Part shown: piece by piece, positions 4,157 to 32,000 of the stretch
Position numbering within the stretch: position 1 is the stretch's first letter
Layout: every line of letters starts with the position of its first letter
DNA from: Dickeya dadantii NCPPB 898
GTDB taxonomy: Bacteria; Pseudomonadota; Gammaproteobacteria; Enterobacterales; Enterobacteriaceae
DNA: 32,000 nucleotides
Reading direction: 5' to 3'
Assembly: GCF_000406145.1 (NCBI RefSeq)
Contig: NZ_CM001976.1
Coordinates: 4,057,472 to 4,089,471, forward strand
Position numbers and translations under genes: made by a program
Notes under the pieces: generated by a model
Seen by the model: the letters and a program-made list of their open reading frames with translations, nothing else
Told to the model about the DNA's origin: nothing
Databases searched by the model: none

Positions 4157-4924
4157 TCAGCCATTCAGAATTTGCCACAGCAGGCGACGGTACACCGGCA
4201 TCAACGGATGCTGCCACAGCTGCCACAGACTGACGGCGGCGATAACCGACACCAGCGGCGCCAGCCAGTACAGACGCGAAGCCGTCAACCAACCGGTTGA
4301 TTCGGCTTTCGCTCCGCGACGAACACGCCACAGACGCCACACCAGCCAGCCCGCTCCCCACAGCAAAATAGCCGTGACCAACAGTAGCCACTTGAAACTG
4401 CCGCTGTCGGCCTGTTTGGGGATATCGATCGCCACGCCGGCCAGAATGCCGGGCAGCAGATAAACCGGCGGCCAGGTAAGGCAGCCGATGATATTCGGCA
4501 ACGCAAAGCGCCGGGGCGACAACTCCAGCATCCCCGCCACCATCGGGATCAGCGGACGAGTCGGGCCAAAAAACCGCCCAATCAGGATGGTCGCCATATT
4601 GTGCTGATGCAGCATTTTTTCCGTGCGATACAGATACGCCCGATGCTTTTGCAGAAACGACCAGTTATGCAGCCGGTCCTTGAAACGCCAGCCGATAAAA
4701 TAGGAAATCCAGTCTCCCAGCAGGCAACCGATGATGCCCATGCCCCAGGCCGGGTACAGCCCCATATTACCGCTGCCGATCAGCGCCCCCAGCGACGCCA
4801 TCATCAGCGTGCCGGGCAATAGCAGCCCCACCAACGCCAGCGACTCCAGAAACGCCACCAGCAGTACCGCCGTCAGCGACCAGGCTAACGATTGAGTGAT
4901 CAGATGCTCCAGCCAGGCTTCCAT
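4157..4924 (-). CDS. yabI: DedA-family inner membrane protein YabI
   Basis: 255 aa and multi-TM. VAFLESLALVGLLLPGT, GRFFGPTRPLIPMVAGML and NIIGCLTWPPVYLLPGILAG are collinear with E. coli YabI (254 aa). Confidence 0.88.
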   Translation of the reverse strand: MEAWLEHLITQSLAWSLTAVLLVAFLESLALVGLLLPGTLMMASLGALIGSGNMGLYPAWGMGIIGCLLGDWISYFIGWRFKDRLHNWSFLQKHRAYLYRTEKMLHQHNMATILIGRFFGPTRPLIPMVAGMLELSPRRFALPNIIGCLTWPPVYLLPGILAGVAIDIPKQADSGSFKWLLLVTAILLWGAGWLVWRLWRVRRGAKAESTGWLTASRLYWLAPLVSVIAAVSLWQLWQHPLMPVYRRLLWQILNG

Positions 4925-5035
4925 AAACCTCTACATTTCTGCTTTTTTATGAACAAAGATAACGGGATGATAGCAGGAAACGGCAGGAATATGGCAGATA
5001 GTAGTAAAAGCACGGCTGACGCGAAGCTCACCACG

Positions 5036-5168
5036 ACTGGACAGCCATTTCCTTGAAGCAGCACCCTTTTTTTGTTATAAAAGTATCACTTTAGGACAAT
5101 AAATGGATTGACTCATGGAAGAAGCGAGGATTGCTTTTCCTGTTGGCAACGGGCAGATCAACAGAGTT
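5036..5168 (+). repeat. Copy A of a ~133-bp direct repeat (promoter, 5' UTR and first 18 codons of the muramidase gene)
   Basis: It is collinear with 8362..8493, and the distance from the -35 hexamer to the ATG is 62 nt in both copies. I count about 5 mismatches over the ~94 nt from the -35 hexamer to codon 11. Confidence 0.9.
5053..5081 (+). promoter_or_regulatory. Sigma70-like promoter of the effector-immunity operon
   Basis: TTGAAG (5053-5058), a 17-nt spacer and TATAAA (5076-5081) lie 34 nt upstream of the ATG at 5115. The identical hexamers and spacing recur at 8378..8406. Confidence 0.55.
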
Positions 5169-5966
5169 GAAGACGTAAAAACCGTTCAACAGTTGCTGAA
5201 CAGCCGGTCAAACGGAACACTGAGCGTTGACGGTATTGTCGGCACCAGAACACAGGCAGCCATTATCCACTTTCAACGCCAGATATTAGGAATGGGTACA
5301 CCTGACGGTATTGTCTCCCCGCACGGACCTACACTGAGAAAATTAAACCATCTTCACACCCGACGCCCGGCAACCTCTCAGCCATCATTTTCTGCCGACT
5401 CCGGCGACAGCGTTTCCGAAGAGCTCTATCTGAATGCAGCCAGAGAGCTAAACTGCGAAGTAGCGGCGATTAAAGCGATTGTAATGACTGAAACCGCGCT
5501 AAATAGCGCGTTTATCAGCCCAGGTAAACCCAAAATACTTTATGAACGACACTACTTTCGTCGTCTGACACAAGGTAGATACGACCGGTCAAATCCGGAT
5601 ATATCGGGTGATCAATACGATCGTTATGGTTCAAATAACCGTCAATACGAGCGGCTTGAACAAGCAATAAGACTAGACAGGCGAGCAGCATTAATGTCGG
5701 CCTCATGGGGAGCTTTCCAGATTATGGGGGCAAATTATAGAACAGCTGGCTTTGATGATGTCGAAAGTTTCGTAGCCGCGATGAGTAATATTAATGGGCA
5801 AGTATTTTCTTTCATCAATCATATAAAAAGCTCAACAGTTCTACTTTCAGCGCTACAACATAAAGACTGGAAAAAATTTGCAAGACACTATAATGGCAAG
5901 GATTACGAAAAGAAAAAATATGATTTAATTATAGCTAACAACTATAATCTACTAACAAACAGATAA
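5115..5966 (+). CDS. Peptidoglycan-binding domain plus DUF3380/PF11860-type N-acetylmuramidase; candidate Hcp-associated T6SS antibacterial effector
   Basis: 283 aa with no signal peptide or TM segment. The N-terminal region VKTVQQLLN...DGIVGTRTQAAIIHFQ...GTPDGIVSP looks like PG_binding_1. The C-terminal part carries motifs I associate with the DUF3380 muramidase family (KPKILYERHYF, RRAALMSASWGAFQIMGANY, W.KFARHYNG.DY..KKYD). The gene is AT-rich relative to the flanks. Confidence 0.85.
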   Translation: MEEARIAFPVGNGQINRVEDVKTVQQLLNSRSNGTLSVDGIVGTRTQAAIIHFQRQILGMGTPDGIVSPHGPTLRKLNHLHTRRPATSQPSFSADSGDSVSEELYLNAARELNCEVAAIKAIVMTETALNSAFISPGKPKILYERHYFRRLTQGRYDRSNPDISGDQYDRYGSNNRQYERLEQAIRLDRRAALMSASWGAFQIMGANYRTAGFDDVESFVAAMSNINGQVFSFINHIKSSTVLLSALQHKDWKKFARHYNGKDYEKKKYDLIIANNYNLLTNR

Positions 5967-5975
5967 GGATAAAAA

Positions 5976-6539
5976 ATGAAAAAACTCCTGACATACTTAA
6001 TCATATTATTATCATTCGAATCTTACGCATCTATAAACTTAAAAAAACCTGAAAACATTGATTTTTCCAGGCAACTTACTGAAAAAACAAAATCATTAGA
6101 AATAAGTGACATTAACATAGAAAAAGATCAAACATTTGAAATAGAAAAGGATGGGTTATATCTAGGAACACTAATCCCTGCCGAGGGTTATTATAGAAAA
6201 TACAATCCGCTATGTTTTATTGGTTGGTCGATAGACAAAAAAGAAATCAGTAATATTGTTCCATCTATTGGCCAGGGTGATTTCGAAAATTCAACCTGCT
6301 TAAGTCTCGATGCAGTAGGGAAAATAGACGTTAGCGATAAGACATATATAGGATTTGTCTATACTGTTGGATTAAGAGATAGACGAGCAAAAAACTACTT
6401 CTTGCTTGAGCTGGATAAAGATAAAAGAACGATCGTAGATAAAAGTACAGTTATTGATGAGCTACAGAATAATGGTGAGAAAAAAAGCATTACAGCACTC
6501 CGAAAACATCTTGAAAACACCAAGGAGAAAAAAGAGTGA
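5976..6539 (+). CDS. Paralog 1 of 5: secreted (periplasmic) protein, candidate muramidase immunity/inhibitor
   Basis: 187 aa with signal peptide MKKLLTYLIILLSFESYA|S. AAGGA lies upstream, and the start is 9 nt after the effector stop. It shares the family core GT.IPA.G.Y.NY.PLCFIGWS.DKK.IS.I..S.G.G.FE...C..LDA.GKI....K..IGF.Y.VGL.DR...NYFL.ELD with two conserved Cys. Confidence 0.88.
   Translation: MKKLLTYLIILLSFESYASINLKKPENIDFSRQLTEKTKSLEISDINIEKDQTFEIEKDGLYLGTLIPAEGYYRKYNPLCFIGWSIDKKEISNIVPSIGQGDFENSTCLSLDAVGKIDVSDKTYIGFVYTVGLRDRRAKNYFLLELDKDKRTIVDKSTVIDELQNNGEKKSITALRKHLENTKEKKE
6159..6426 (+). repeat. High-identity segment shared by paralog 1 and paralog 5 (copy in paralog 1)
   Basis: This 268-nt segment is collinear with 9263..9530. 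I count about 23 differences, mostly synonymous. The 5' and 3' parts of the two genes are much more diverged. Confidence 0.8.
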
Positions 6540-7102
6540 GAGCGGTATCAATGATATTCTTTATGGTAATATCGTTGCAATCTTACGCATCAATTAACCT
6601 AATAAAAAACAATGAAGATTCACTGATAAAGCAAGTCATTGAAGATGCCAATAAAAGAGGCATTGTTGATATAAAAATACAAGAAGAGCAAATTTTTGAC
6701 ATTAATGAAAACAATAAAAACATAGGAACAATAATACCAGGAAAAGGATTTTATAAAAATTACTATCCAGTTTGTTTTATTAGCTGGTCTACTGACAAGA
6801 AGACAATATCCAATATTGTCTTCTCAATGGGGAATGGTGATTTTGAGTTTTCACAATGCGAAACCCTTGATGCGCTAGGAAAAATAGAGTCCGCAGGAAA
6901 GATATTCATTGGATTTGTTTATTCAGTCGGTTTACCTGATGGTAGAACGGAACAAAATTATTTTTTATTGGCGCTAGATCAGGATAGAAGAGCTATTGTA
7001 GATAAAAGTAAACTTGTAGAACCTCTGCAAAACACCAATGAAAGAAAAAGTATTTCTGCAATCAGAAGACATCTTAAAAAGGTGATGGAAGATAAAGAAT
7101 GA
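6536..7102 (+). CDS. Paralog 2 of 5: secreted protein, candidate immunity
   Basis: 188 aa. The GTG start overlaps the paralog 1 stop (GTGA at 6536-6539), with AAGGAG at 6522-6527. The signal peptide is MRAVSMIFFMVISLQSYA|S. An alternative ATG at 6551 lacks a charged n-region. The family core is the same. Confidence 0.85.
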   Translation: MRAVSMIFFMVISLQSYASINLIKNNEDSLIKQVIEDANKRGIVDIKIQEEQIFDINENNKNIGTIIPGKGFYKNYYPVCFISWSTDKKTISNIVFSMGNGDFEFSQCETLDALGKIESAGKIFIGFVYSVGLPDGRTEQNYFLLALDQDRRAIVDKSKLVEPLQNTNERKSISAIRRHLKKVMEDKE

Positions 7103-7665
7103 AAGTTCTGTTGGCAATACTCACATTGATAATTCCATTGAGTTCATATTCTACTATTAAACTAACTAAAATTAATGATAGTAGCATATTGAAGAAATTG
7201 ATAATAAAAGGCCAAGCATCAGATATCAGCCGCATAAAAATACAGAAAGATCAGACTTTCGACATCAGCGAAGACGGAAAATACATAGGCACTATCGTGC
7301 CCGCAGAAGGATATTACAACAATATTGAACCACTCTGTTTCATTGGATGGTCTTCAGATAATAAAAATATCTCAGATATAAAAATTTCTATCGGTCGGGG
7401 ATTTTTTGAAACAGTGACCTGCCTGAGTCTCGATGCAGTAGGAAAAATTGAAGTTAAAGGAAAAACGTTCATTGGTTTTGTTTATACCGTAGCATTGCGT
7501 GACAGAACATCGCAAAACTATTTTTTACTTGAACTAGATAAAGAAAGAAAAACAATAACAGACGTAAGCAATACAATTGAAAAACTACAATTTTACTCTG
7601 AAAAGAAAAGCATCATTGATCTTAAAAAGTACCTTGAAGAAAATTTGCAAGCTGTAAAAAGCTAA
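7099..7665 (+). CDS. Paralog 3 of 5: secreted protein, candidate immunity
   Basis: 188 aa. An ATGA start/stop overlap with paralog 2 (7099-7102) suggests translational coupling. The signal peptide is MKVLLAILTLIIPLSSYS|T. The family core is the same. Confidence 0.88.
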   Translation: MKVLLAILTLIIPLSSYSTIKLTKINDSSILKKLIIKGQASDISRIKIQKDQTFDISEDGKYIGTIVPAEGYYNNIEPLCFIGWSSDNKNISDIKISIGRGFFETVTCLSLDAVGKIEVKGKTFIGFVYTVALRDRTSQNYFLLELDKERKTITDVSNTIEKLQFYSEKKSIIDLKKYLEENLQAVKS

Positions 7666-7686
7666 AAACCGTTAAATTTCAGCTTA

Positions 7687-7726
7687 ATTATCTGGCACCT
7701 AATATCACACAATGGTGCCAGATAAT
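7687..7726. terminator. Bidirectional hairpin terminator between the effector-immunity operon and convergent hcp
   Basis: ATTATCTGGCACC (7687-7699) and GGTGCCAGATAAT (7714-7726) form a 13-bp perfect stem with a 14-nt loop. It sits in the 82-bp gap between the paralog 3 stop (7665) and the hcp stop (7748), in A/T-rich flanks. Confidence 0.7.
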
Positions 7727-7747
7727 AACGCAGGAAGATCCCACTAA

Positions 7748-8227
7748 TTAAAACAGCTGACTTTCCCAAATGCAATATGCACTGGTTCCGGCTTTGACAT
7801 GTTCGCATAACATGTTTTTATAAGTAAAAGAGATAAACTCTTCTGGTTGATATTCATTGTGCGTTATCGAACTGGGGTAGTGCATTCTGATATTTTTTAC
7901 TTTTGCATCGGTCAATTTTATTGAGAAATATTGCTCCATCCCCCCATTCTCTGAAGTTCGGTAGAAAATGAAAGTACAGGTTAAATATTCGTTCTCGTTT
8001 AACGTGCTCAATAATAATGGTGTCGATTTATCAATTGGTTTCCTAATTTCAACAGGTTGATATGCAACATTATCGATACGCTCTGCTGCATTGTTTAGCT
8101 CATAGACAAAAATCTCATTTTCATGCCCTTTTTGCCATTTGTTCCCCATTGAGTCATAAGATCCACATCCAGAAGAGATCAGCCCCTGATTTTTACCTTC
8201 TATTTTCAGATAAATGATATTGGCCAT
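7748..8227 (-). CDS. hcp: Type VI secretion tube protein Hcp (TssD), orphan copy
   Basis: 159 aa. The N-terminus MANIIYLKIEGKNQGLISSGCGSYDSMGNKWQKGHENEIFV, the size and the overall pattern resemble enterobacterial Hcp-family proteins as I recall them. There is no C-terminal toxin extension. AAGGGAA lies upstream of the ATG. Confidence 0.82.
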   Translation of the reverse strand: MANIIYLKIEGKNQGLISSGCGSYDSMGNKWQKGHENEIFVYELNNAAERIDNVAYQPVEIRKPIDKSTPLLLSTLNENEYLTCTFIFYRTSENGGMEQYFSIKLTDAKVKNIRMHYPSSITHNEYQPEEFISFTYKNMLCEHVKAGTSAYCIWESQLF

Positions 8228-8361
8228 AAAATTCCCTTTAACAATTGAAATATATTAATTAAGCAAGATACAACCAACGATGATAATGTAATTTCTATTA
8301 CATATCTATATTCTAAGCAAATAAAAATCCTGCCGATACGTGTCAGGATAGTTTAATCATA

Positions 8362-8493
8362 ACTGGCAACCATTGCCTTGAAGCAACACCATTTTTTTGT
8401 TATAAAAGCATCACATTAGGACAATAAATGGATTGACTCATGGAAGAAGCCAGGATTGCTTTTCCTGTTGGTACATTGCAGAACAACAGAGTT
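8362..8493 (+). repeat. Copy B of the ~133-bp direct repeat (promoter, 5' UTR and effector codons 1-18)
   Basis: See copy A (5036..5168). Similarity ends right after AACAGAGTT (codon 18). Confidence 0.9.
8378..8406 (+). promoter_or_regulatory. Second copy of the sigma70-like promoter, now driving paralogs 4-5
   Basis: TTGAAG (8378-8383), a 17-nt spacer and TATAAA (8401-8406) have the same hexamers and spacing as 5053..5081. Confidence 0.55.
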
Positions 8494-8505
8494 AAGTTAG
8501 GGTGA
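8440..8505 (+). pseudogene. Remnant of a second muramidase effector gene (first ~18 codons only; 21-aa ORF)
   Basis: The sequence ATGGAAGAAGCCAGGATTGCTTTTCCTGTTGG... translates to MEEARIAFPVGTLQNNRVKLG*, compared with MEEARIAFPVGNGQINRVEDVK... in the intact gene at 5115. The rest of the effector is absent, and the paralog 4 start follows 5 nt after the stop. Confidence 0.8.
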
Positions 8506-8510
8506 CCCAT

Positions 8511-9077
8511 ATGAAAAAAATAGCACATGCTTCACTATTAATAGCGCTATTGGCCTCATTACAAGCCTATGCATCTATTAATTTAATCAAGAATGAGGAT
8601 AAAACCCTATCAAGTGAAGTAATAAAATATGGAAATAAAAAAGGGCTAGTTGATATAAAAACCCAGAGCGATCAGAGCTTTGACATTATTGACGACGGGA
8701 AATACATAGGAACAATCATTCCAGCCAAAGGATTTCATAAAAACTATTACCCGCTATGCTTTATTGGTTGGTCAACTGATAAAAAAACAATATCAAAAAT
8801 CATCCCATCAATAGGGCAAGGATATTTTGAACTTTCCCTCTGTTCAAAACTTGATGCAATAGGAAAAATAGAGGAAAAAGGAAGAACCTTTATTGGCTTT
8901 ATATACACTGTAGGGTTGAGAGACAGATATGCTCAAAACTACTTTCTCATTGAGCTTAATAGAGAAAAAAGAACTATAGAAGATAAAAGTCAACTCATTG
9001 AAAAATTTCAAAATGACTCAGAAAAAAAGAGCATAGCTGATCTCAGAAGAGATATAAAGAAAATTGATGAGAAATAG
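8511..9077 (+). CDS. Paralog 4 of 5: secreted protein, candidate (orphan) immunity
   Basis: The ORF track starts at GTG 8502. ATG 8511 gives 188 aa, the same as the other paralogs. The signal peptide is MKKIAHASLLIALLASLQAYA|S. The mature N-terminus (SINLIKNEDK..VDIK) resembles paralog 2. The family core is the same. Confidence 0.86.
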   Translation: MKKIAHASLLIALLASLQAYASINLIKNEDKTLSSEVIKYGNKKGLVDIKTQSDQSFDIIDDGKYIGTIIPAKGFHKNYYPLCFIGWSTDKKTISKIIPSIGQGYFELSLCSKLDAIGKIEEKGRTFIGFIYTVGLRDRYAQNYFLIELNREKRTIEDKSQLIEKFQNDSEKKSIADLRRDIKKIDEK

Positions 9078-9079
9078 CA

Positions 9080-9634
9080 ATGAAGAAAATATTGACAATA
9101 ATAACATTATCAATATCGCTTCAAGCGCATGCATCAATTACGTTAACGCCGATTGATAGCAGTAATCTATTATTGCAGCTGTCGATAAAAACACAGCCCT
9201 TGGGAATAGACCAGATAAAAATAGATAATGGACAATCTTTTGACATTACTGAAAACGGTAAATATCTAGGCACACTAATCCCTGCCGAGGGTTATTATAG
9301 AAAATACAATCCGCTATGCTTTATTGGTTGGTCTATAGACAAAAAAGAAATCAGTAATATTGTTCCATCTATTGGTCAAGGTGATTTCGAAAACTCAACT
9401 TGCTTAAGTCTCGATGCAGTTGGAAAAATAGATGTTAGGAAGAAAACATATATAGGGTTTGTTTATACTGTTGGATTAAGAGACAGACGAGCTAAAAACT
9501 ATTTTTTGATTGAGTTAGATAAAGATAAAATAACGATCGCAGATAAAAATGCCCTTGTCGATAGTCTACAAAATAATAGTGATGAAAAAAGCATTGCAAT
9601 GCTCAGGAAAGAGACTGTAATTAAAATTGTGTAA
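9080..9634 (+). CDS. Paralog 5 of 5: secreted protein, candidate (orphan) immunity, 3' end replaced by IS sequence
   Basis: 184 aa with signal peptide MKKILTIITLSISLQAHA|S. The central part is near-identical to paralog 1. From codon 178 (GAG at 9611) the reading frame runs into the IS left inverted repeat, giving the foreign tail ETVIKIV*. Confidence 0.82.
   Translation: MKKILTIITLSISLQAHASITLTPIDSSNLLLQLSIKTQPLGIDQIKIDNGQSFDITENGKYLGTLIPAEGYYRKYNPLCFIGWSIDKKEISNIVPSIGQGDFENSTCLSLDAVGKIDVRKKTYIGFVYTVGLRDRRAKNYFLIELDKDKITIADKNALVDSLQNNSDEKSIAMLRKETVIKIV
9263..9530 (+). repeat. High-identity segment shared by paralog 1 and paralog 5 (copy in paralog 5)
   Basis: See 6159..6426. Confidence 0.8.
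9603..9610. repeat. Left copy of the 8-bp target-site duplication (TCAGGAAA)
   Basis: TCAGGAAA directly abuts the IS left end, and an identical octamer is found at 10926-10933. A 9-bp reading (CTCAGGAAA) is equally possible because the adjacent base is ambiguous. Confidence 0.8.
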
Positions 9635-10925
9635 TTGCCTGTTTTTGATATGTTCACTCCAACAACGGAGACAGGCAAACGATGGACGAAAAGAAACTCA
9701 AAGCACTGGCTGCTGAATTGGCTAAAGGCCTTAAAACCGAAGCTGACCTCAATGCGTTTTCCCGCATGCTGACGAAGTTAACCGTCGAAACCGCGCTCAA
9801 TACAGAACTGACTGAGCATCTCGGGCACGAGAAAAATGCCCCTAAATCAGGCTCTAATACCCGAAATGGTTACTCGTCTAAAACCGTGTTATGCGACGAC
9901 GGTGAGATTGAACTGAGTACGCCACGTGACCGCGAAAACACCTTCGAGCCGCAACTGATAAAGAAAAATCAGACACGTATCACGCAGATGGACAGCCAGA
10001 TTTTATCTCTGTACGCCAAAGGCATGACGACCCGTGAAATCGTTTCTACATTCAAAGAGATGTACGATGCTGATGTGTCTCCCACGCTGATATCCAAAGT
10101 GACCGATGCGGTTAAAGAGCAGGTGACAGAATGGCAAAACCGGCCACTGAACCCGCTATATCCCATTGTTTATCTTGATTGTATCGTGGTGAAAGTCCGT
10201 CATAGCGGCAGCGTCATTAACAAAGCGGTATTCCTTGCGTTGGGCATCAACACAGACGGCCAGAAAGAGCTGCTGGGTATGTGGCTGGCCGAAAACGAAG
10301 GCGCGAAGTTCTGGCTCAATGTGCTGACGGAGCTTAAAAACCGGGGACTTCAGGATATCCTGATTGCCTGCGTGGACGGTCTGAAAGGTTTCCCGGAGGC
10401 GATAAACAGCGTTTATCCTCAGACACATATCCAGTTATGCATCATCCATATGGTGCGCAACAGCCTGAAATATGTCTCGTGGAAGGATTACAAGGGCGTC
10501 ACCAGCGGGCTGAAAGCGGTGTATCAGGCCCCAACTGAGGAAGCGGCGTTGATGGCGCTGGACAAGTTCTCCGGCATCTGGGATGAAAAATACCCCCAAA
10601 TCAGTAAAAGCTGGCGTGCGCACTGGGAAAATCTCAACACGTTCTTTGGCTACCCGCCGGATATCCGCAAGGCTATCTACACCACCAATGCCATCGAGTC
10701 GCTGAACAGTGTTATTCGGCAGGCGATAAAGAAACGTAAGGTGTTCCCGACAGATGATTCGGTACGTAAAGTGATTTATCTGGCAATACAGTCGGCCTCG
10801 AAAAAATGGAGTATGCCGATCCAGAACTGGCGGCTGGCGATGAGCCGTTTTATTATCGAGTTCGGTGACCGCCTGAGCGATCACCTTTAATACGGTGGCA
10901 ATTACACAGAATTATTTACAGGGTC
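9611..10925 (+). mobile_element. IS256-family insertion sequence (~1.3 kb)
   Basis: It carries a single Mutator/IS256-type transposase ORF. The terminal inverted repeats are imperfect: GAGACTGTAATTAAAATTGTGTAATTGCC (9611-9639) against the reverse complement of 10897-10925, GACCCTGTAAATAATTCTGTGTAATTGCC, with 23 of 29 matches by my count. The element is flanked by the 8-bp direct repeat TCAGGAAA. Its base composition is intermediate between island and core. Confidence 0.9.
9682..10890 (+). CDS. IS256-family (Mutator-like) transposase
   Basis: 402 aa. MDEKKLKALAAELAKGLKTEADL...TELTEHLGHEK...YLDCIVVKVR...ACVDGLKGFPEAI...IQLCIIHMVRNS...TTNAIESLN is the typical layout of IS256/IS285-like transposases. 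Confidence 0.93.
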   Translation: MDEKKLKALAAELAKGLKTEADLNAFSRMLTKLTVETALNTELTEHLGHEKNAPKSGSNTRNGYSSKTVLCDDGEIELSTPRDRENTFEPQLIKKNQTRITQMDSQILSLYAKGMTTREIVSTFKEMYDADVSPTLISKVTDAVKEQVTEWQNRPLNPLYPIVYLDCIVVKVRHSGSVINKAVFLALGINTDGQKELLGMWLAENEGAKFWLNVLTELKNRGLQDILIACVDGLKGFPEAINSVYPQTHIQLCIIHMVRNSLKYVSWKDYKGVTSGLKAVYQAPTEEAALMALDKFSGIWDEKYPQISKSWRAHWENLNTFFGYPPDIRKAIYTTNAIESLNSVIRQAIKKRKVFPTDDSVRKVIYLAIQSASKKWSMPIQNWRLAMSRFIIEFGDRLSDHL

Positions 10926-10933
10926 TCAGGAAA
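10926..10933. repeat. Right copy of the 8-bp target-site duplication (TCAGGAAA)
   Basis: It is identical to 9603-9610 and directly abuts the IS right end. Confidence 0.8.
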
Positions 10934-10960
10934 TATTTTTCTCAAAACATCTCACGTTAA
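10934..10960 (+). pseudogene. Displaced original 3' end of paralog 5 (8 codons plus stop)
   Basis: Removing the IS and one TSD copy joins ...ATG CTC AGG AAA to TAT TTT TCT CAA AAC ATC TCA CGT TAA. This restores ...MLRKYFSQNISR* (185 aa), which is comparable to the LRKHL/IRRHL/LKKYL tails of the other paralogs. Confidence 0.65.
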
Positions 10961-11006
10961 TCCAGACGTATCATTAATTATAAATCCAGCAGGAAAATAG
11001 AGGCAA

Positions 11007-11399
11007 TTATAACAGCAATTCAAAATAAGTAGCATTATCTTCACGATTAACGGAAAGCACAATAAATTTATTTTTATCTGGCGATTCCCATACCTCTCGG
11101 TAGCCATCATCCATATTGAGCGTAAACTTCAATAATTTCAAATAGTTCCTTAACGTCTCAATATCGGTGGTATTTTCAAAATATATACCAGTGACCTGCT
11201 TCCCAGGCCCTTCAGCATCGCCGTGTTTAATTTGATATTTTTGAGATATTTTGGGTACGTTTTTTATTATTGGATCAATTAATTGACTGCTGTCAAAACC
11301 AATCAAAGAGGGGATGCAAGCACCAACATTAAGAGAATAGGTAAGAAAAGATGAAATAAAAATCAGCCTGAACAATATGTTCATATGTTTCTTACTCAT
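11007..11399 (-). CDS. Small hypothetical lipoprotein (orphan, AT-rich)
   Basis: 130 aa. The N-terminus MSKKHMNILFRLIFISSFLTYSLNVGAC has a charged n-region, a hydrophobic core and a lipobox-like VGAC. I recognise no family. It lies at the right end of the AT-rich island. Confidence 0.65.
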   Translation of the reverse strand: MSKKHMNILFRLIFISSFLTYSLNVGACIPSLIGFDSSQLIDPIIKNVPKISQKYQIKHGDAEGPGKQVTGIYFENTTDIETLRNYLKLLKFTLNMDDGYREVWESPDKNKFIVLSVNREDNATYFELLL

Positions 11400-11510
11400 T
11401 ATTCTTTAAGTACAGTGGTTAATTCACTTGCGCCACGAAATCCCAACCAGATCACATAGAAAAGAGACTGATCGAAGGCATAACCTAAACCAGAGCAACA
11501 ATATAGACAA

Positions 11511-30274: not shown

Positions 30275-31108
30275 ATGGCTACCTATCTTGTCGGCGACGT
30301 TCACGGCTGCGCCATCGAACTCAAAGCGCTGCTGGCGCAAGTCGCCTTTGACCCCGAGCATGACACTCTGTGGTTGACCGGCGATCTGGTCGCCCGCGGT
30401 CCCGATTCGCTGGAAGTGCTGCGCTATGTCCGTTCGCTGGGCGACGCGGTGCGCATGGTGCTCGGCAACCACGATTTGCATCTGCTGGCGGTGTACGCCG
30501 GCATCAGCCGCAACAAACCCAAGGATCGCCTGGATCCGCTGCTGTCGGCGCCGGATGCGGACGAGCTGATCAACTGGCTACGCCGCCAGCCGCTGCTGCA
30601 GGTGGACGAGGAACGCAAGCTGGTGATGTCCCATGCCGGCATCACGCCGCAGTGGGATCTGGACACCGCCAAAATGTGCGCGCGGGAAGTGGAAGCGATC
30701 CTCAGCAGCGATAGCTACCCACTGTTTCTGGACGCGATGTACGGTGACATGCCGAACCACTGGAGTCCGGAACTGAGCGGGCTGGCGCGTCTGCGGTTCA
30801 GCACCAACGTATTTACCCGCATGCGCTACTGCTTCTCCGGCGGCCAGCTCGACATGCTGTGCAAGGAAGCGCCGTCGCAGGCGCCGTCCTTGTTGAAACC
30901 CTGGTTCGAACTGCCGGGACCGGTATCGGCCGAATACGCCATCGCGTTCGGCCACTGGGCGTCGCTGGAAGGTAGAGGCACGCCGGAAGGCATCTACGCG
31001 CTGGATACCGGCTGCTGCTGGGGAGGCGCGCTCACCGGCCTGCGCTGGGAAGACCAGCGCTACTTCACCCAACCGTCGCTGACGGCCCCGGAAACCGACG
31101 CCATTTGA
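30275..31108 (+). CDS. apaH: Bis(5'-nucleosyl)-tetraphosphatase (symmetrical) ApaH
   Basis: 277 aa with metallophosphatase motifs [14 protein letters not shown] and GNHD. It is collinear with E. coli ApaH. Confidence 0.95.
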
Positions 31109-31110
31109 TG

Positions 31111-31136
31111 TATCCGGCGGCGGTTGTCGCCGGATA
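31111..31136. terminator. Hairpin just after apaH (possible terminator)
   Basis: TATCCGGCG (31111-31119) and CGCCGGATA (31128-31136) form a 9-bp stem with an 8-nt loop, starting 3 nt after the apaH stop. No clear U-tract follows. Confidence 0.45.
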
Positions 31137-31271
31137 TCGCACGCCTGCCCCGATCTACAACATTACGCCCCGATCACACCGCCGTCTTCTCGGGTGAACA
31201 TGATGACCAAAGTCGATGCTGGACTAAGCGGGCCGATCGCTACCATCCAGCCATGCCGATATCGCCAAAGC

Positions 31272-32000
31272 TCAATGCTGATAAGGTTTCCTCATCACAG
31301 ATAAAATTGCCGCTACCTTTTTTCCTGCCCGAATCGAAGGCGTTTCAATCCATGTGAACATAACTGATGACATTAGGATACTGCCGGCAATAGAGAGCAT
31401 AAATATTGCCATTCTTTCGATAGATGTCGCTGAGTCTGATAAATGGTTTTTTAAAAAAACCATTACAGGATAATGAACGAGATAAAGTGAATAGGAGATG
31501 CCCCCGAGAAAAGTCAGTATCCGACTATTTCCTGTCTCATTGTTACCATTCAGTATAATGGCCGAAATCATGATAACCAACGCCAACCAGAAACCGCCAC
31601 TCAAGCCAAAAACCTGTGGACCAACAATAACAGCACCAGCTGCTGCAGCAGCGAAGGCTATTTTCGCAACGGTCCGGCTGCAAGGTGATTTATTGATTCT
31701 CCCCCTGATCATTAATTCAGCCAGCAACATACCAGCAATGAATTCAAACATGATGGTATTACTTATTAATTTAATCCAAGCTTGCCACCAGTGTGTAACC
31801 ATAATATCCGGCGACACCTGTGATGAGAAATTAAAATTGCCGTTGTAGTACAGCTGAAAACCTGTCATGGCGGCCACAAAAACCAGCGTGCAAATGTAGC
31901 TGCGATAGCGGTAATTGATGTACATCGATACAGAAAAAATAAAGTAGAACATTATTTCGTAGGATAACGTCCACGGAGGGCCAAGAGCACTGTAGCCGAA
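31272..32000 (-). CDS. Acyltransferase-3 family (OafA/YrhL-like) integral membrane protein, 5' end outside window
   Basis: The frame remains open from 31952 to the window edge (FGYSALGPPWTLSYEIMFYFIF...). WTLSYE..FY resembles the W(S/T)LS.E..FY motif of Acyltransferase_3. The product is multi-TM. The gene is markedly AT-rich compared with the adjacent apaH. Confidence 0.7.
   Translation of the reverse strand, partial: FGYSALGPPWTLSYEIMFYFIFSVSMYINYRYRSYICTLVFVAAMTGFQLYYNGNFNFSSQVSPDIMVTHWWQAWIKLISNTIMFEFIAGMLLAELMIRGRINKSPCSRTVAKIAFAAAAAGAVIVGPQVFGLSGGFWLALVIMISAIILNGNNETGNSRILTFLGGISYSLYLVHYPVMVFLKNHLSDSATSIERMAIFMLSIAGSILMSSVMFTWIETPSIRAGKKVAAILSVMRKPYQH

Follow-up and report, generated by a model that had tools for sequence, protein, structure and literature searches.

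Within a 32,000-nucleotide stretch of the Dickeya dadantii NCPPB 898 chromosome (RefSeq assembly GCF_000406145.1, contig NZ_CM001976.1, positions 4,057,472 to 4,089,471; hereafter the window, numbered from its first nucleotide) we describe an island that contains a muramidase gene and five genes for members of a single secreted protein family. We interpret this locus, with a probability of roughly 0.7, as an Hcp-linked muramidase effector of a type VI secretion system (T6SS) together with one cognate immunity gene, A1, and an orphan immunity array that arose by sequential displacement of effectors. The original prediction, which was made from the window alone, had proposed accumulated immunity against the muramidase alleles of competitors. 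Comparison with related genomes favours this proposal, as the effector type and the clade of the adjoining immunity gene are linked in 14 of 14 loci.

According to this interpretation, the effector would be carried by the adjacent Hcp and injected into neighbouring bacteria, where it would use Glu126 to cut cell-wall glycan strands. The five paralogs would be exported by the Sec pathway to serve as periplasmic immunity proteins and would probably inhibit the muramidase by binding to its variable C-terminal lobe. A1 alone would be the cognate of the resident effector allele (T1). Paralogs B, C and D (the last with A2) would be orphans, cognate to the T3, T4 and T2 alleles of other Dickeya strains, some of them of the same species, and would protect the strain from attack by carriers of these alleles.

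Predicted effector types and immunity clades

The predicted T6SS cargo effector of type T1 (5115–5966, plus strand) is 283 residues long and consists of a PG_binding_1 domain (PF01471, expectation value E = 2.7e-07) and an N-acetylmuramidase domain (PF11860, E = 3.9e-56), the latter matching with 190.5 bits against a curated cut-off of 22.3. Its relatives in the Protein Data Bank (PDB) are the endolysins 7q4s, 5nm7 and 7rum. An exact look-up of the effector sequence gave no record, and the nearest relatives are from D. dadantii. The single catalytic glutamate of the DUF3380 class is kept as Glu126, which aligns with Glu101 of the endolysin AP3gp15; the E101A mutant of that enzyme loses 99.4% of its activity (PMC5674055). 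As judged from reading the sequence, the effector has no signal peptide, its N-terminus (MEEARIAFPVGNGQ…) being without a hydrophobic h-region.

The effector is a mosaic. Residues 1–155 are nearly invariant and their codons track the species; residues 156–283, which make up the C-terminal half of the catalytic domain, occur in four types and their codons track the type. Related genomes had been suggested as a place to look for effector alleles, and within Dickeya at least four deeply diverged types of C-terminal half were found (six clusters at 90% identity), so that an objection from lack of allelic diversity does not hold. Between types, the synonymous substitutions per synonymous site (dS) of the effector 3' half range from 1.1 to 4.6. 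The types coexist at a narrow taxonomic scale: T1, T2 and T3 are found in D. dadantii, T2 and T4 in D. fangzhongdai, and T2 and T3 in D. oryzae with its closest relative.

All five paralogs lie on the plus strand. A1 (5976–6539, 187 residues) begins 9 bp after the effector stop codon, B (6536–7102, 188 residues, GTG start) overlaps the A1 stop by 4 bp, and C (7099–7665, 188 residues) follows. D (8511–9077) has 188 residues when read from its ATG or 191 from the GTG at 8502, and A2 (9080–9634) has 184. The pairwise identities of the five are 47–68%, and a family profile scores each copy with E between 1e-92 and 1e-96, which argues that their kinship is not due to chance and bears out their description as one family. 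The original prediction had portrayed them as a single tandem array, having overlooked an hcp gene, a stump of the effector gene and an insertion sequence (IS). The arrangement is in fact three plus two, C and D being separated by 845 bp that contain the minus-strand hcp and a duplicate of the effector 5' end. The short and odd C-terminus of the fifth copy, A2, is an artefact of an IS256 insertion which replaced the last eight native codons with seven IS-derived codons.

Across Dickeya the family resolves into four deep clades, A, B, C and D, of which A comprises the subtypes A1 and A2. The clades are approximately 50% identical to each other and 75–98% identical between orthologs of different species. 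The type of the effector predicts the clade of the directly downstream immunity gene at each of the 14 loci: T1 is paired with A1, T2 with D, T3 with B and T4 with C. One locus (L090), which was examined only once the rule was in place, served as a forward prediction and agreed with it. The genes that follow are also ordered. T1 is followed by A1-B-C (window, L079, L083 and L091), which places A1 after the effector in all four T1 loci; T2 by D-A2, with or without a further B-C (L084, L082, L001, L087 and L090); T3 by B-C (L002, L086 and L089); and T4 by C as the sole gene (L088, from D. fangzhongdai). The arrays D-A2-B-C, A1-B-C, B-C and C are thus always a suffix, or a truncated suffix, of the order D-A-B-C. 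All known clades (A1, A2, B, C and D) are represented in the window, whose orphan paralogs have 84–98% protein identity to their closest orthologs, which adjoin other effector types elsewhere.

The divergence of neighbouring segments indicates what has been exchanged. Between D. dianthicola and D. parazeae, dS is 0.69 for the flanking dedA gene and 0.70 for the effector 5' half, but only 0.06 for the effector 3' half and 0.05 for the adjacent D gene, with values of 0.32 for A2 and 2.0 for hcp. The low values for the 3' half and D, against approximately 0.7 in the flanks, show that the 3' half and the adjacent immunity gene travel as a unit. In a comparison of the window with a T3-carrying D. 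dadantii strain, dS is 0.17 for the effector 5' half and 0.07 for dedA. A1 is itself a chimera: its residues 1–63 are 36–42% identical to A2, compared with 96–100% for the core, and relative to the A2 of D. dianthicola its core is 100% and its C-terminal region 92% identical. One exchange therefore ended inside an immunity gene. We envisage that the array would have been built by repeated recombination events in the conserved 5' half, each of which would have replaced the effector 3' half and added a new immunity gene. Older immunity genes would have been retained downstream in the order D-A-B-C, with the newest adjoining the effector.

It had also been suggested that the copies might provide dosage or backup, and a related possibility is that they form hetero-oligomers; in either case several paralogs would jointly neutralise the single resident effector. 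The three co-oriented paralogs behind the effector, with their overlapping or abutting starts and stops, do suggest co-expression. However, paralogs that are approximately 50% identical, each with orthologs of 84–98% identity in other species, are not recent dosage duplicates. Furthermore, intact effectors are found with only one main-array family gene (L088) or with two (L002, L087 and L089), and a mapping of clades to effector types would not be expected. This alternative suits neither the divergence nor the mapping, and we regard it as very improbable.

Association with muramidases and type VI secretion

Relatives of the effector were scanned in one genome per species, which yielded 78 muramidase loci, and the 4746 open reading frames (ORFs) of these loci were searched with the family profile. 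Every one of the 27 family matches, from 19 loci, is directly downstream of a muramidase gene or in tandem behind such a gene. A family gene is present in 17 of the 19 loci whose effectors are full-length and most similar. The paired loci span Dickeya, Erwinia, Pantoea, Mangrovibacter, Acetobacter, Polymorphobacter, Beijerinckiaceae and Acidobacteria.

An hcp gene is present in every Dickeya locus that was read far enough to show it. The main T6SS cluster of Erwinia and Pantoea reads TssC-Hcp-muramidase-family member-…-Fha, and in Mangrovibacter the muramidase and family pair stands beside VgrG, DcrB and a PAAR-Rhs toxin. The pair accordingly displays the usual marks of a T6SS effector and its immunity gene, namely adjacency to hcp, vgrG or PAAR genes, an unsignalled effector with an enzymatic domain, and a co-oriented immunity gene at the 9 bp spacing given above. 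The stretch from hcp to tagH in Pantoea has been described as an 'hcp island' that carries orphan immunity genes as well as putative effectors (PMC3942780; PMC9796082). In the accessible part of a preprint (bioRxiv 10.1101/2023.03.17.533219), the P. agglomerans homolog of the muramidase is named as a putative effector, Ame, from its likeness to the endolysin 7RUM; that part links Ame and Pme to LprI lysozyme-inhibitor genes and makes no mention of the present family.

In E. psidii (L007, 9364–15825) and E. oleae (L004, 5529–11426) whole hcp-muramidase-immunity modules occur twice in tandem. The two copies are 89–99% identical in Hcp, 53–71% in the effector and 35–40% in the immunity protein, a gradient which is expected of a co-diversifying pair.

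We note several further features of these loci. The first E. oleae muramidase, as called from its ORF, has 206 residues and is without the peptidoglycan-binding domain. In Erwinia loci, each hcp island carries two or three family genes. In Erwinia sp. CGal63 (L003, 7905–9768), the genes located between hcp and the muramidase gene encode a 143-residue protein without a signal peptide and two small signal-peptide proteins of 240 and 133 residues, which are probably another effector–immunity set in the same hcp island; proteins of 133–139 residues whose N-terminal sequences are similar are also found in L004, L006 and L007. Mangrovibacter yixingensis (L011, 7578–10867) has two muramidase genes in a span of 3 kb, of which the first precedes a family member. 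Directly behind the second come genes for a DcrB-like adaptor and a PAAR-Rhs protein, and no immunity gene was recognisable there.

A function outside type VI secretion was also considered, in which the muramidase would be a domesticated phage endolysin or a TtsA-like secretion-assisting enzyme and the paralogs, for example, general lysozyme inhibitors directed against host or phage enzymes. Phage endolysins are indeed the closest solved structures, the low-GC (guanine plus cytosine) island carries an IS element, and hcp is the only T6SS structural gene in the window. Against this, holin and phage genes are absent from the vicinity, adjacency to hcp is conserved in Dickeya, and a homolog lies inside complete T6SS clusters of Erwinia and Pantoea. 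In the 78 loci the family is found only beside this muramidase subclade, and toxin–immunity pairs are marked by this combination of a polymorphic 3' half and a neighbour that varies with it. We therefore give this explanation only a very small chance, and continue to favour Hcp-linked delivery.

Retention of orphan copies

The second group of paralogs, D-A2, is preceded by a duplicate of the effector upstream region and an effector stump (8367–8505, plus strand). The stump is a 21-codon ORF (8440–8505) in which only the first 18 effector codons are kept, and the segment is seen as a direct repeat (D2) of 127 nucleotides, with 90% identity between 5042–5168 and 8367–8493. The last 25 or so nucleotides of the stump looked similar by eye to the effector 3' end, but blastn-short gave no support and only the 18 codons from the 5' end are claimed. 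The junction before D is common to the window, D. dadantii L083 and D. solani L080, the last of which has an in-frame stop. This second module (stump-D-A2) would have lost its effector through internal deletion.

The module is found in strains of types T1, T3 and T4, and D. chrysanthemi (L079) has D-A2 without the stump. A separate D-A2 module is absent from the four T2 strains that are readable at this position, which have D-A2 in the main array, and the same contrast is seen within a single species, D. fangzhongdai. D. solani has no effector and only stump-D-A2, with both D and A2 intact; paralog D of the window is 98% identical to this orphan D. In D. fangzhongdai CP094338 (L082, 6013–6865) a one-nucleotide insertion splits the T2 effector into ORFs of 114 and 168 residues while all four immunity genes are intact, and this strain appears to be heading towards an immunity-only state.

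The extra copies might instead be neutral relics of recombination that swaps 3' ends, or all of the paralogs might cross-neutralise every allele. Orphans have been truncated or disrupted in some loci, the L082 effector is frameshifted as described above, and cross-reactivity is conceivable in a family whose core is 67% identical between clades. Neutral relics would, however, be difficult to reconcile with orphans that are 75–98% identical across species and evolve with ratios of nonsynonymous to synonymous substitution (dN/dS) of approximately 0.1–0.5, or with the retention of intact D and A2 by D. solani without an effector. The D-A2 module is also present in T1, T3 and T4 strains and missing from T2 strains, whose main array already supplies D-A2. 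With regard to cross-reactivity, each incoming effector type brings its own clade, which suggests that the resident immunity genes were insufficient. We consider these alternatives unlikely, although less so than the dosage and non-T6SS explanations, and prefer the reading in which orphans are protective remnants of displaced modules.

Some observations nevertheless weigh against that reading. The 14 loci share ancestry and are not independent, so that the perfect association of type and clade is weaker than the count suggests. No cognate effector was seen for A2 as distinct from A1. Orphan decay is evident in the truncated D and A2 of L086, the A2 fragment of L083 and the IS-disrupted A2 of the window, and this fits weak or intermittent selection. 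With respect to delivery, no adaptor, VgrG or PAAR gene is located nearby in the window, and an effector of approximately 31 kDa is large for carriage inside the Hcp lumen.

The putative immunity protein family

Several details of the original prediction were confirmed when the family was examined as a whole. Sec signal peptides with the cleavage endings described there are seen in all five copies (SYA↓S, SYA↓S, SYS↓T, AYA↓S and AHA↓S, with the arrow marking the cleavage site), and signal-peptide-like N-termini are found in all family members. These Sec-type N-termini, with their A/S-x-A/S motifs, point to a periplasmic location for the five paralogs. Each copy has exactly two cysteines, Cys80 and Cys108, which are the only invariant columns among 31 family members from several phyla; the near-invariant positions include Gly64, Gly71, Phe81, Gly99, Glu104 and Gly115. 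A disulfide between Cys80 and Cys108 probably stabilises the immunity proteins.

The claim of a conserved core also stood, with mean pairwise identities of 69% for residues 64–147 compared with 40% for residues 20–63 and 44% for residues 148–187. The consensus motif proposed for it holds approximately, with departures at several positions in copies 2 and 3. The ends, which had been called hypervariable, are more diverged than the core as stated, but the term is overstated since they are 72–80% conserved within each orthologous clade.

Positions in the core that discriminate between clades cluster at residues 86–109, where they are interleaved with the invariant Gly99, Gly101, Phe103, Glu104 and Cys108. 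This loop, together with the N-terminal region, is the predicted effector-binding surface. The conserved G-x-G-x-(F/W)-E…C portion may sit at or near the active-site cleft, and the flanking variable residues would then set allele specificity.

An AlphaFold model built with 50 homologs is a confident one, with a predicted local distance difference test score (pLDDT) of 82.6 and a predicted template-modelling score (pTM) of 0.77. The model is mostly β-structure, with a disordered signal peptide (pLDDT below 50 for residues 1–16) and two C-terminal helices. A fold search with the model gave no significant match, either in the PDB (best E = 0.06, with template-modelling (TM) scores of at most 0.35 among the matches listed) or in BFVD (best E = 0.04). 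Matches to β-propeller, sialidase and GH117 folds (E = 0.06–1, TM score at most 0.35) were rejected as generic β-sheet similarity, and the weak matches to z-alpha (E = 0.048) and GIL01 gp7 (E = 0.51), which involve the C-terminal helix only, were rejected as chance.

Sequence searches were similarly unrevealing. None of the 31 family members matches a Pfam or NCBIfam entry even at E up to 1, and searches of the PDB with a single sequence or with the family profile gave no match. No sequence or fold likeness was found between the paralogs and the described families Tsi3/Tgi, Tai4/Rap, Ivy, MliC/PliC, PliG and LprI. The family is rare: a word-indexed search of 5.8 billion proteins returned 53 family clusters, of which those with a named organism are all from Dickeya and those with a protein name are all 'hypothetical', and an exhaustive profile search of 1.84 billion representatives returned only 34 family clusters at E up to 1e-3. 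We also note longer family members of 280–285 residues in Erwinia sp. CGal63 (L003, 11441–12298) and E. endophytica (L005, 11889–12731), in which the domain is joined to a C-terminal extension of approximately 100 residues; members of 283 and 372 residues were returned by the representative search as well.

A more speculative proposal, which we advance tentatively and consider possible rather than probable, is that the family represents a new fold of proteinaceous muramidase inhibitor. It would be a disulfide-braced β-structure that bears the conserved G-x-G-x-(F/W)-E…C loop and whose allele specificity derives from a few positions within residues 86–109, interleaved with that loop, and from a swappable segment of 45 N-terminal residues, and the D-A-B-C arrays would record four successive effector sweeps across the genus. 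If this is correct, the A1 chimera would show that exchange of a short segment can re-program specificity.

Island layout and genomic setting

The island is a low-GC insert at approximately 5000–11400, with 33–38% GC over most of 6000–10000 compared with about 60% in the flanks. The surrounding DNA is Dickeya (dadantii-like) core chromosome, and the insert lies between a dedA-like gene and a liv-type ABC operon with polB. The upstream flank comprises thiamine ABC transporter genes (named via the gene tables of syntenic Dickeya loci), ilvIH and the dedA-like VTT gene, and the downstream flank comprises the liv-type operon, polB, rapA, rluA, djlA, lptD, surA, pdxA, rsmA and apaH. The same chromosomal site is occupied by the island in all of the Dickeya loci. 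Within the insert the order is effector, A1-B-C, hcp (minus strand), effector stump, D-A2, IS256 and a gene for a 130-residue protein (minus strand).

The region upstream of the effector (5042–5114, plus strand) is conserved in other Dickeya loci and duplicated at 8367–8439, and is a probable promoter or leader of the effector operon. A scan of 4900–11500 for promoter and terminator consensus sequences gave only as many matches as shuffled sequence in this AT-rich DNA, and an Rfam scan of the whole window gave none. Between the convergent C and hcp genes is an inverted repeat (I3, 7677–7736) with 23-nucleotide arms that are 83% complementary and 14 nucleotides apart, a possible bidirectional terminator. 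The hcp (TssD) tube protein gene itself (7748–8227, minus strand) encodes 159 residues (PF05638, E = 4.6e-19; TIGR03344, E = 1e-53), and its product is 97% identical to that of the D. oryzae hcp in the corresponding position.

The IS256-family element (9611–10925, plus strand) is 1315 bp long, has imperfect terminal inverted repeats and encodes a transposase (ORF 9682–10890; NF033543, E = 1.1e-126). It is flanked by an 8-bp target duplication, TCAGGAAA, at 9603–9610 and 10926–10933, and sits eight codons upstream of the A2 stop. The displaced native 3' end of A2 (…YFSQNISR, followed by the stop codon) is found at 10926–10960 on the plus strand and is collinear with the D. solani A2 gene; the uninterrupted site in that species indicates that the insertion is recent.

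The last gene of the insert (11007–11399, minus strand) encodes 130 residues, of which the N-terminal ones are hydrophobic. Neither Pfam nor NCBIfam yields a match, but the protein is 95% identical over 95 residues to the product of a 128-residue D. solani gene, and D. chrysanthemi, D. dadantii and D. fangzhongdai have homologs of 125–153 residues at the corresponding position. In D. solani (L080, 11174–12776, minus strand) the homolog comes after a different hcp, 53% identical to that of the window, and a putative effector of 231 residues without a Pfam match; neither this hcp nor the 231-residue gene was found in the window. The 130-residue protein is a probable orphan immunity protein of a second effector family, the window keeping only this orphan of an apparent second Hcp-effector-immunity module. 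At the right end of the window (31001–32000) the GC fraction drops to 0.48 over a partial acyltransferase gene (PF01757, 31272–31952, minus strand), which may be the edge of another acquired segment.

Comparison with known systems

Orphan immunity with sequential displacement is a known phenomenon, as proposed for Vibrio cholerae (PMC5361080) and for Pantoea hcp islands (PMC9796082). In the literature searched we found no description of the immunity family, of its pairing with the PF11860 'Ame'-type effector, of the map of four alleles onto four clades or of the nested Dickeya arrays. Orphan immunity arrays are thought to decide whether strains coexist, and in few cases can each orphan be mapped to a living effector allele. 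Four effector alleles and four clades form a complete 4 × 4 (strictly, 4 × 5) matrix that is directly testable in a genus of crop pathogens, and the natural chimeras point to specificity determinants. The system would further offer an uncharacterised family of inhibitors for DUF3380 muramidases, enzymes which are under development as endolysin antibacterials, and a marker by which soft-rot Dickeya strains that compete on one host could be typed.

The likeness to the Rap paralogs of Serratia marcescens noted in the original prediction is retained for the arrangement of the genes, but does not extend to the proteins. Rap1a, Rap1b, Rap2a and Rap2b are immunity paralogs of the Tai4 family for the amidases Ssp1 and Ssp2, and are encoded inside a T6SS cluster with the two effectors. 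Both cases involve clustered, periplasmic (for the window, predicted) paralogs with disulfides or a cysteine pair that could form one, some copies without an assigned effector, and effectors that target peptidoglycan. However, the window paralogs have no Tai4 or Rap match in Pfam or the PDB, and Ssp1 and Ssp2 are amidases whereas the window effector is a muramidase. As the families are unrelated, the comparison is by analogy only.

A functional parallel is seen in the Tge/Tgi pairs (Tse3–Tsi3 and Tge2–Tgi2), in which, as Whitney and colleagues reportedly described in 2013, a T6SS muramidase active in the periplasm is neutralised by an adjacent immunity protein with a signal peptide. The combination of a muramidase with an adjacent, signal-bearing immunity gene is the same here, but no relation in sequence or fold was found between the window paralogs and any solved immunity protein. 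The PF11860/DUF3380 class with its single catalytic glutamate is not known to have the lysozyme fold of Tse3. The window effector resembles the endolysin AP3gp15 of phage AP3 (5NM7; PMC5674055) in its order of PG_binding_1 and DUF3380 domains, with a match of E = 4.9e-28. Unlike AP3gp15, it is chromosomal and hcp-linked, and has a cognate inhibitor family and a polymorphic C-terminal lobe.

The Pantoea and Erwinia T6SS-1 hcp island (Shyntum 2014, PMC3942780; Carobbi 2022, PMC9796082) is a close relative. There too the effector directly follows hcp, belongs to the same PG-binding and PF11860 family (7RUM-like and approximately 50% identical to the window effector) and is followed by a homolog of the window paralogs, and orphan immunity arrays have been proposed (PMC9796082). 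That island lies inside the main T6SS cluster, however, and the arrays described in it mix unrelated families (Tai4, LprI and ACP-like). In Dickeya, hcp is instead on the opposite strand, downstream of the array.

The Rhs and CdiA-CT polymorphic toxins (Poole 2011 and Koskiniemi 2013, as cited in other papers) reportedly share with Dickeya a constant 5' region, a variable toxin 3' region with its cognate immunity gene, exchange by homologous recombination and downstream orphan modules. The Dickeya effector differs in being a small cargo enzyme whose variable part keeps its fold and activity, and the Dickeya orphans differ in being immunity genes only, with no toxin tips other than the 18-codon 5' stump.

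The process envisaged here corresponds to that in V. cholerae, where an incoming effector–immunity module takes the place of the old effector, whose immunity gene stays on downstream (PMC5361080, Kirchberger et al. 2017). The orphans of those arrays match the cognate immunity genes of other strains, and recombination in a conserved 5' region produces mosaic clusters (PMC5361080), which is the same logic as in Dickeya. The two differ in what is exchanged: V. cholerae swaps a different toxin or VgrG C-terminal domain, whereas Dickeya swaps the C-terminal half of a single catalytic domain, with effector types that belong to one family and immunity genes that belong to another. Only in Dickeya, when compared with V. 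cholerae, are the arrays strictly nested in the order D-A-B-C, does the island lie away from the T6SS cluster with only hcp linked to it, and does a breakpoint fall inside an immunity gene, A1.

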